A stretch of 64,000 bases of DNA from an uncultured archaeon (GTDB taxonomy: Archaea > Altiarchaeota > Altiarchaeia > IMC4 > SCGC-AAA252-I15), in NCBI GenBank assembly GCA_964587725.1, contig CAZPLO010000001.1, forward strand, positions 108,471 to 172,470, given 5' to 3'. Below the pieces are notes generated by a model, which made no database searches, had not been told where the DNA came from, and was given only the letters and a program-made list of their open reading frames with translations. Position numbers and translations under genes: made by a program. This document shows positions 11,522-11,630 of the stretch, piece by piece (within the stretch, counting starts at the first letter, position 1; every line of letters begins with the position of its first letter).

Positions 11522-11630
11522 TATCAAGAACCGCCGGTCATAGACCGACGGTAGGATATACTTTTAAGGCGGTTCTTGATAGTAGATTTCCACTGGCCAA
11601 CACCACCGGTCAATAGACCGGTGGAAATCT
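11522..11630. repeat. Two nested inverted-repeat modules sharing the core CCGGTCA(A)TAGACCG
   Basis: 14-bp perfect IR at 11522-11535/11568-11581; 10-bp perfect IR at 11584-11593/11621-11630; inner hairpins at 11530-11552 and 11603-11624. Confidence 0.85.

Follow-up and report, generated by a model that had tools for sequence, protein, structure and literature searches.

The strongly folding sequence at positions 11522-11634 of the analysed stretch of archaeal DNA (64,000 nt in length; referred to below as the window) is, very probably, a 113-nt non-autonomous element of the IS200/IS605 family, of the PATE type. As a selfish DNA repeat, it has no dedicated function as an RNA switch or operator, and it consists of the two ends of an IS200-like insertion sequence, fused to each other, from which the transposase gene is missing. 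Among the roles that had been suggested for this sequence in a preliminary description, that of an ssDNA recombination site proved to be essentially right: the unit is present in multiple copies, is inserted target-specifically and without target duplication, and has a relative that carries a transposase gene.

Structure of the element

The preliminary description, which covered 11522-11630, had presented the sequence as a mirror-image pair of hairpin modules with alternative pairings. All of the pairings described are found in the sequence: (i) a perfect 14-nt inverted repeat (11522-11535 with 11568-11581), (ii) a perfect 9-nt hairpin (11603-11611 with 11616-11624), (iii) an inner stem (11531-11539 with 11543-11551) containing one mismatch, which is a SNP private to the window copy, the stem being perfect in the other genomic copies, and (iv) a 13-bp pairing with one T.G between AGATTTCCACTGG (11584-11596) and CCGGTGGAAATCT (11618-11630). 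The mirror symmetry holds for the placement of the outer arms; the inner hairpins are not mirror images, but the same hairpin repeated directly on one strand. The span also required correction at its right limit: the true extent reaches 11634, and the adjacent TTTATA (11635-11640) is the target site, which lies outside the element, since it is present in empty sites.

The core of the hairpins, CCGGTC-N3-4-GACCG, occurs in the 64-kb window only at the element (0.18 matches are predicted from shuffled sequences). The folding energies of the two strands are -49.5 kcal/mol (z = -6.1) and -50.6 kcal/mol (z = -5.8), and none of 200 dinucleotide shuffles folded as well as the native sequence. A search of Rfam 15 revealed no match to the element at gathering thresholds, and the best match in E-value mode scored 22.6 bits, against a cut-off of 75. 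A C/D-box reading was dropped after inspection of the motifs by eye.

The active (top) strand of the element corresponds to the minus strand of the window, on which the following features were distinguished:

11522-11634, minus strand: the mobile unit, 113 nt, 5'-TCAGAGATTT...GGTTCTTGATA-3', delimited by its sharp ends, by empty sites and by depth
11635-11640, minus strand: target site (TAM, C_L), TATAAA (TTTATA on the plus strand); host DNA, outside the element
11629-11634, minus strand: 6-nt spacer TCAGAG, between G_L and the target
11625-11628, minus strand: candidate guide G_L, ATTT, directly 5' of the foot of IP_L
11603-11624, minus strand: IP_L, the left-end subterminal hairpin, CCACCGGTC-TATT-GACCGGTGG, with a perfect 9-bp stem
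11584-11593, minus strand: X', the left-end clamp arm, located 3' of IP_L and pairing with the spacer, G_L and the first bases of IP_L
11568-11581, minus strand: Y, the right-end clamp arm, internal, complementary to the last 14 nt of the right end
11531-11551, minus strand: IP_R, the right-end subterminal hairpin, CCGTCGGTC-TAT-GACCGGCGG, with one private mismatch in the window copy
11522-11530, minus strand: right-end tail TTCTTGATA, 9 nt from the foot of IP_R to the end of the element

The order of these features on the minus strand, with slashes marking the element boundaries, is TATAAA / TCAGAG-ATTT-(CCACCGGTC TATT GACCGGTGG)-...-(CCGCCGGTC TAT GACCGGCGG)-TTCTTGATA /. This register (TATAAA / TCAGAG...TTGATA /) was set by the variable base that follows the right end and by the (T/A)TAAA that precedes all close copies. 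Terminal inverted repeats are absent, the two ends (TCAGAGATTTCC... and ...GGTTCTTGATA) not being inverted copies of each other. Palindromes are located near both termini: IP_L starts 10 nt from the left end and IP_R ends 9 nt from the right end, and the two are near-identical hairpins on the same strand, each with a 9-bp stem. The right tail, which is kept in all members of the family while the sequence just beyond it varies, has GATA, the candidate motif for cleavage at the right end, as its last four nucleotides (GACA in other genera). The 113-nt unit contains no conserved ORF and is too short to encode a transposase. Within this anatomy, the outer stem of what had been called module 2 is the X' left-end clamp, and the far partner of module 1 is the Y right-end clamp.

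Copies of the element and their distribution

The repeat search consisted of a pattern search and BLAST of the genome to which the window belongs (G000; 1.56 Mb, 48 contigs, 92% complete). A sequence of approximately 119 nt is repeated, with 97-100% identity to the window copy (contig C1), at C3:91467-91585, C29:148-266 and C40:72-190. One further copy is cut by a contig end (C40:6377-6431), and another, located among small genes, has decayed and carries internal deletions (C20:20615-20705), which brings the total in this genome to four full copies (that of the window included), one cut and one decayed. By eye, the genes around the C20 copy resemble toxin-antitoxin genes of the PIN/VapC type.

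Similarity between the copies breaks off sharply at both ends, and the flanks are unrelated; those of the four genomic copies have nothing in common except the TATAAA on the left side. The copies adjoin unrelated genes at unrelated loci, in varied orientations, and several are placed just 3' of stop codons. In Logan unitigs of four microbial-mat metagenome runs, the interior of the element reaches about 5-6 times the depth of the flanks. The near identity of the copies implies that the element has moved recently.

Diverged copies (68-76% identity) were identified in a small number of related Altiarchaeota genera, the named carriers being 'Candidatus Altiarchaeota archaeon' JAZDNF01, 'Euryarchaeota archaeon SCGC AAA252-I15' and 'Methanobacteriota archaeon' JBDRAY01. 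The exact right-end pattern is present in 7 of the 61 genomes of the phylum (4 matches in G000, 11 in G017, 3 in G019, 2 in G011 and 1 each in G008, G015 and G057), with no matches for the reversed-pattern control, and it was not found in G001, a genome of the same genus as G000. At least 120 metagenome contigs carry the same right end. Such a patchy and multi-copy distribution is the pattern of a mobile element. The conserved left-end pattern gave no matches in the viral contigs scanned; the corresponding scan of genome contigs returned three archaeal carriers and about 20 bacterial matches, which are presumed to be due to chance.

Some copies have a modified structure. Three of those in G011 (L016, L022 and L018, on C11, C5 and C9) contain an extra segment of approximately 50 nt inside the right-end hairpin, and this segment includes a pair of perfect hairpins, GTGTCGGAGGCAnnTGCCTCCGACAC and GCCGAGCAAGGCTCGGC. 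Relative to the copies on C5 and C11, that on C9 has everything between its clamp arms in inverted orientation. An invertible promoter switch, considered on account of a TATA-like loop and this one inverted variant, was rejected, as the loop sequence is not conserved. On the metagenome contig Ga0208373_1000991 (L137, 1-1470), two related PATE copies flank an unrelated, intact-looking IS200-like element with a tnpA gene (729-1196) and different hairpins of its own, whose right end is adjoined by the second PATE.

In the Logan contigs of the source metagenome we found no skip joints (corresponding to strains without the insertion) and no circle junction or excision joint. A contig joint leading from 11641 to 11521, which links the left-end side back to the right-end side, was detected in runs X2-X4 with depths of 41 vs 51, 57 vs 86 and 6.4 vs 9, i.e. 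at roughly single-copy level. This joint retains the TATAAA target plus two bases (AT), which points to two elements arranged head to tail and missing from the MAG, rather than to a transposition circle.

Insertion sites

Comparisons of occupied and empty sites show that the element is inserted immediately 3' of a pre-existing TATAAA (minus strand), without target duplication. The flanks of an occupied site in G019 (C25) and of the corresponding empty site in G008 (C105) are 93-97% identical. The empty site reads ...GTGTGAAAATAAGTT ATTTATAGCT..., with the TTTATA already in place, and in the occupied one AAGTT(AT) and (AT)TTATAG are separated by 116 additional nt, without duplication. The same was observed for the occupied C29 site of G000 and its empty counterpart in G001 (C12), where TTATAAA is already present and is not duplicated upon insertion. 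Removal of 11522-11634 from the window leaves the joint AAATATTTTATAAA/AGATG (more fully, AAATATTTTATAAA/AGATGCGGTGCTGTGG), which, in a looser comparison, resembles the G001 sequence AAATATTTTCTCACTATG (for the fuller joint, AAATATTTTCTCACTATGAAATGCTGTGG), located 5' of the homologous small ORF.

The last four nucleotides of the target, TAAA, are the base-by-base complement of the ATTT beside the left hairpin. In 21 of 25 family members, representing seven guide types, the guide is complementary to the target, which lies 5-9 nt upstream, as compared with 10.0 +/- 1.8 matches for permuted guides (maximum of 16 in 2000 permutations); these counts come from related sequences and not from independent events, and are supportive of the guide without constituting proof. 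No such guide was recognized at the right end, where the CATA/CATG located 5' of the right hairpin is not complementary to the terminal GATA/GACA in either sense.

TATAAA is also the consensus of the archaeal TATA box. At the C3 copy of G000, at three copies of G011 and at about ten metagenome copies, the target TTTATA precedes a start codon of the opposite strand by 27-50 nt, which is the spacing of an archaeal promoter. To judge from these copies, insertion may frequently take place at TATA boxes, on their BRE side.

Two insertions sit exactly at the end of a host gene. In G000 (C40:5170-6381), a host gene converges on the left end of the element and its TAA is located inside TATAAA, and in G019 (C25; L008, 1418-2560) the TAG of a host gene converging in the same way falls in the first bases of the element.

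A transposase-bearing relative

An element of approximately 650 bp with homologous ends was identified in the relative SCGC AAA252-I15 (G019:C46; L014, 1501-2155). It contains a frameshifted gene encoding an IS200-type transposase (Y1_Tnp, PF01797, E = 2.3e-18), and its ends and tnpA are in the canonical order and orientation. Its left hairpin, CCACTGGTC-AAA-GACCAGTGG, is followed by 10 nt and then by TTTAAA, and its right end reads ...CATACC ATCGGTC TACA GACCGAT GGTTCTTGATA. This is the sole autonomous relative found, and it is represented by a single frameshifted copy in a different genus.

Genes of Y1 transposases are present in 17 of the 49 genomes of the order. The ends of the 18 other Y1-transposase loci of the order were compared with the element, and none of them is similar to it. 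No Y1 transposase (PF01797) was detected in the G000 assembly, nor in the carriers G011, G008 and G017. Among 80 metagenome loci with the same right end, none has tnpA upstream of that end, and a tblastn search of these loci with the TnpA of G019 revealed only an unrelated neighbouring IS200-like element. It is probable that the transposase was present until recently, or that it is encoded on unbinned DNA.

Omega RNAs are frequent in the PATEs of other IS200/IS605 elements (PMC10055086). We considered whether the copies are small RNA genes of one family, or PATEs that provide an omega RNA scaffold for TnpB/IscB in trans. The element is highly structured in its right half, where the stems covary, and the TATAAA beside the left end could serve as a TATA box for transcription through the element. 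However, no TnpB (PF07282) was found in G000 or in the other element-bearing genomes of the family, the autonomous relative encodes tnpA only and Rfam contains no match, which makes this origin very unlikely.

Covariation and clamp stems

The structure was aligned in 14 family members, taken from four genomes and eight metagenome contigs. Taken over both hairpins and both outer stems, the proportion of paired cells is 93.9%, and 10 pairs have changed on both sides, counts that derive from related family members and not from independent events. When the stems were slid along the alignment, at most four double changes were obtained, and none of 500 shuffles reached the observed values. The individual stems behaved as follows: (i) X/X' (helix 1) is paired in 89% of cells, with four of six pairs changed on both sides, (ii) IP_L (helix 2) is paired in 98.4% of cells, with three such pairs, (iii) the Y right-end clamp (helices 3-4) comprises seven invariant pairs and the covariation of GATA/TATC (in G000) to GACA/TGTC (in other genera), and (iv) IP_R (helix 5) is paired in 92% of cells, with two doubly changed pairs. 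A weak bias is seen on the proposed top strand, where G.T and A.C pairs number 13 and 6.

These results bear on the two readings of the sequence as a static DNA feature. The intergenic location and palindromic character of the repeat would fit a tandem operator, i.e. a double-stranded pair of sites for a dimeric transcription factor, and a one-off template-switch scar had been named as the outcome to be expected if conservation and covariation were lacking. Both were found, and they belong to a family of mobile elements. The half-sites are not conserved, as an operator would demand, and the stems maintain their pairing by compensatory changes and not by fixed sequence; moreover, the whole 113-nt unit moves as a block, and not the palindromes alone. 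Multiple copies at unrelated loci and in other genera exclude a one-off event. The copy number and the empty sites effectively refute both readings, whose probability is negligible.

The 'alternative pairings' noted earlier are, in fact, two hairpins and two extra covarying clamp stems. The left-end clamp can sequester the guide, and the right-end clamp the cleavage site. They could stabilize hairpin extrusion, gate cleavage or act in RNA. We know of no counterpart of the clamp stems in the IS608 model, and a clamp-type regulatory layer for IS200/IS605 elements was not found described in the literature cited here. A joint reading, according to which the clamps constitute a two-state switch of the transposon ends and the family lands on the BRE side of promoters, rewiring gene expression in Altiarchaeota, is speculative and rather unlikely. 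Such a switch may act in ssDNA or in read-through RNA, gating both cleavage and target capture. The preferential landing, by which the family may rewire expression in Altiarchaeota, is suggested by the identity of the target TATAAA with the TATA-box consensus.

Genomic context of the window copy

The window copy is located between two genes of the same strand:

11274-11519, minus strand: gene of an 81-aa small membrane protein, with its ATG 2 nt beyond the right end of the element
11694-12026, minus strand: gene of a parvulin-type PPIase (Pfam Rotamase, E = 4e-25), with its stop codon 53 nt upstream of the target TATAAA

The small membrane ORF starting at 11519, which had been proposed from the sequence, is a real gene: an 87-aa homologue occupies the same position relative to lysA in G001, where the element is absent. 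In that genome, lysA, the small ORF and a gene encoding a 317-aa protein are located on one contig, and the genes of AspRS, the PPIase, a 184-aa protein and ABCE1 on another, whereas the order in the window is PPIase, element, small ORF. The reciprocal junction (317-aa gene, 184-aa gene, ABCE1) is present on contig C9 of G000 and contains no copy of the element. The two genomes thus differ by a reciprocal rearrangement (window 10079-14569 vs G001:C3 and G001:C11; G000:C9:32695-35119), with breakpoints between the PPIase and 184-aa genes and between the 317-aa gene and the small ORF, and both resulting junctions exist in G000. A misassembly of the MAG, considered in view of the broken synteny with G001, was rejected: the existence of the reciprocal junction on C9 indicates that the join across the element is real. 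Since this junction carries no copy, the element probably did not cause the rearrangement.

Similar A+T-rich tracts of TTTAAAC repeats are found beside the element (window 11641-11693) and at the reciprocal junction (G000:C9:33657-33745). Another such tract lies 28 kb away, at about 39540-39594 of the window. For the C3 copy, too, the flanks correspond to two separate contigs of G001. Within the window, a DUF3800-IX RNA of Rfam was identified at 12697-12766 (minus strand; 47.4 bits, above the gathering score), convergent with a 208-aa ORF (12065-12691, plus strand).

By separating the small ORF from its upstream region with 113 nt of strongly folding sequence, the insertion probably alters the expression of this gene. 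Any leader effect is a by-product of the insertion, since the element landed 2 nt upstream of the start codon. That the element was instead dedicated to this role, as a structured cis-regulatory RNA leader (bistable or riboswitch-like) controlling translation of the small membrane ORF, is extremely unlikely. Such a leader would account for the distance of 2 nt from the ATG, for the covarying stems and for an SD-like GGCGG inside the right hairpin and clamp, by virtue of which transcripts that read through from the PPIase gene would carry a strongly folded leader. It does not agree with the presence of the same element beside unrelated genes in varied orientations, with the occurrence of the small ORF without the element in G001, with the recent date of the insertion (copies 97-100% identical) or with the lack of an Rfam match, and the inversion of the clamp interior in one G011 copy would be intolerable for an RNA function.

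Relationship to known elements and proposed mechanism

PATEs are defined by (i) the lack of terminal inverted repeats, (ii) palindromes near both termini, (iii) insertion without target duplication and (iv) a length too short to encode a transposase, combined with multiple copies (PMC3119063). All four features are found in the 113-nt element. As in the PATEs of Haloquadratum walsbyi and the PATE-like elements of Geobacillus stearothermophilus (PMC3119063; PMC10055086), the ends are shared with a transposase-bearing element. These PATEs derive from IS1341/TnpB-type elements, whereas the family described here, from Altiarchaeota, is very short and derives from a tnpA-only (IS200-like) element. 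It differs further in having no TnpB or omega-RNA partner in the host genomes, and in the extra covarying clamp stems beside each hairpin. The absence of terminal inverted repeats and of a target site duplication distinguishes the element from a classical MITE.

The mechanistic paradigm for single-strand 'peel and paste' transposition is IS608 of Helicobacter pylori (PMC3201880, PMC5027513). The target of IS608, TTAC, is situated outside the IS, 5' of the left hairpin, and is read by AAAG directly 5' of the hairpin foot; the right cleavage site is located 10 nt 3' of the right hairpin (PMC3201880). The 113-nt element shares with IS608 two similar subterminal hairpins on one strand, a target that abuts the left end and is not duplicated, a tetranucleotide 5' of the left hairpin that is complementary, base by base, to the target, and a right end located about 10 nt after the right hairpin (9 nt in the element, 10 nt in IS608). 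The two differ in the target ((TA)TAAA vs TTAC), in the distance from target to hairpin (10 vs 19 nt) and in the hairpin stems, which are perfect palindromes in the former and imperfect in the latter. The G_R/C_R rule of IS608 is not reproduced; instead, an internal segment of 11-14 nt pairs with the whole right tail. The element is, moreover, gene-less.

The identity of the enzyme, the chemistry of the cuts, the single-stranded intermediate and any activity at present are inferred by analogy with IS608. In the proposed mechanism, a Y1 (HUH) transposase acting in trans would bind both subterminal hairpins on the single-stranded minus strand. The left cut would be made 3' of the flanking TAAA, recognized via the ATTT guide beside the left hairpin, and the right cut at a distance of 9 nt from the right hairpin, 3' of GATA. 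The element would then leave as a single-strand circle, to be pasted 3' of another (TA)TAAA without duplication of the target.

REPs resemble the ends of IS200/IS605 elements (PMC3333891), and the repeat has in common with REP/BIME sequences its extragenic, G+C-rich hairpins related to such ends and their presumed processing by a Y1 HUH enzyme (PMC3333891, PMC2817692). These likenesses, together with the several copies just after stop codons, would fit a host repeat kept by a domesticated RAYT for transcript stabilization or termination. REPs typically occur in hundreds of copies and as inverted pairs. The element, in contrast, is present in about 5-6 copies as a two-ended unit whose two hairpins are direct, it is inserted target-specifically with sharp boundaries at both ends and it has a patchy distribution among lineages, being absent from the same-genus G001; furthermore, no Y1/RAYT gene was found in G000. 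A REP-like host function is, on these grounds, highly improbable, and we retain the assignment of the repeat to the PATEs.

Significance

An apparent candidate for a riboswitch or operator thus becomes an annotated mobile element, which also explains several contig breaks in the MAG. Sequence scans will continue to pick up transposon ends of this kind in the guise of 'RNA-like' structures that fold strongly and covary. If functional, the clamp stems would constitute a testable addition to the model of single-strand transposition. The highest median IS content reported among archaea is that of Altiarchaeota (PMC13343696), and in this phylum the repeat documents a recently active IS200/IS605-type family, with a TATA-box-like target and with carriers in which no transposase is detectable.
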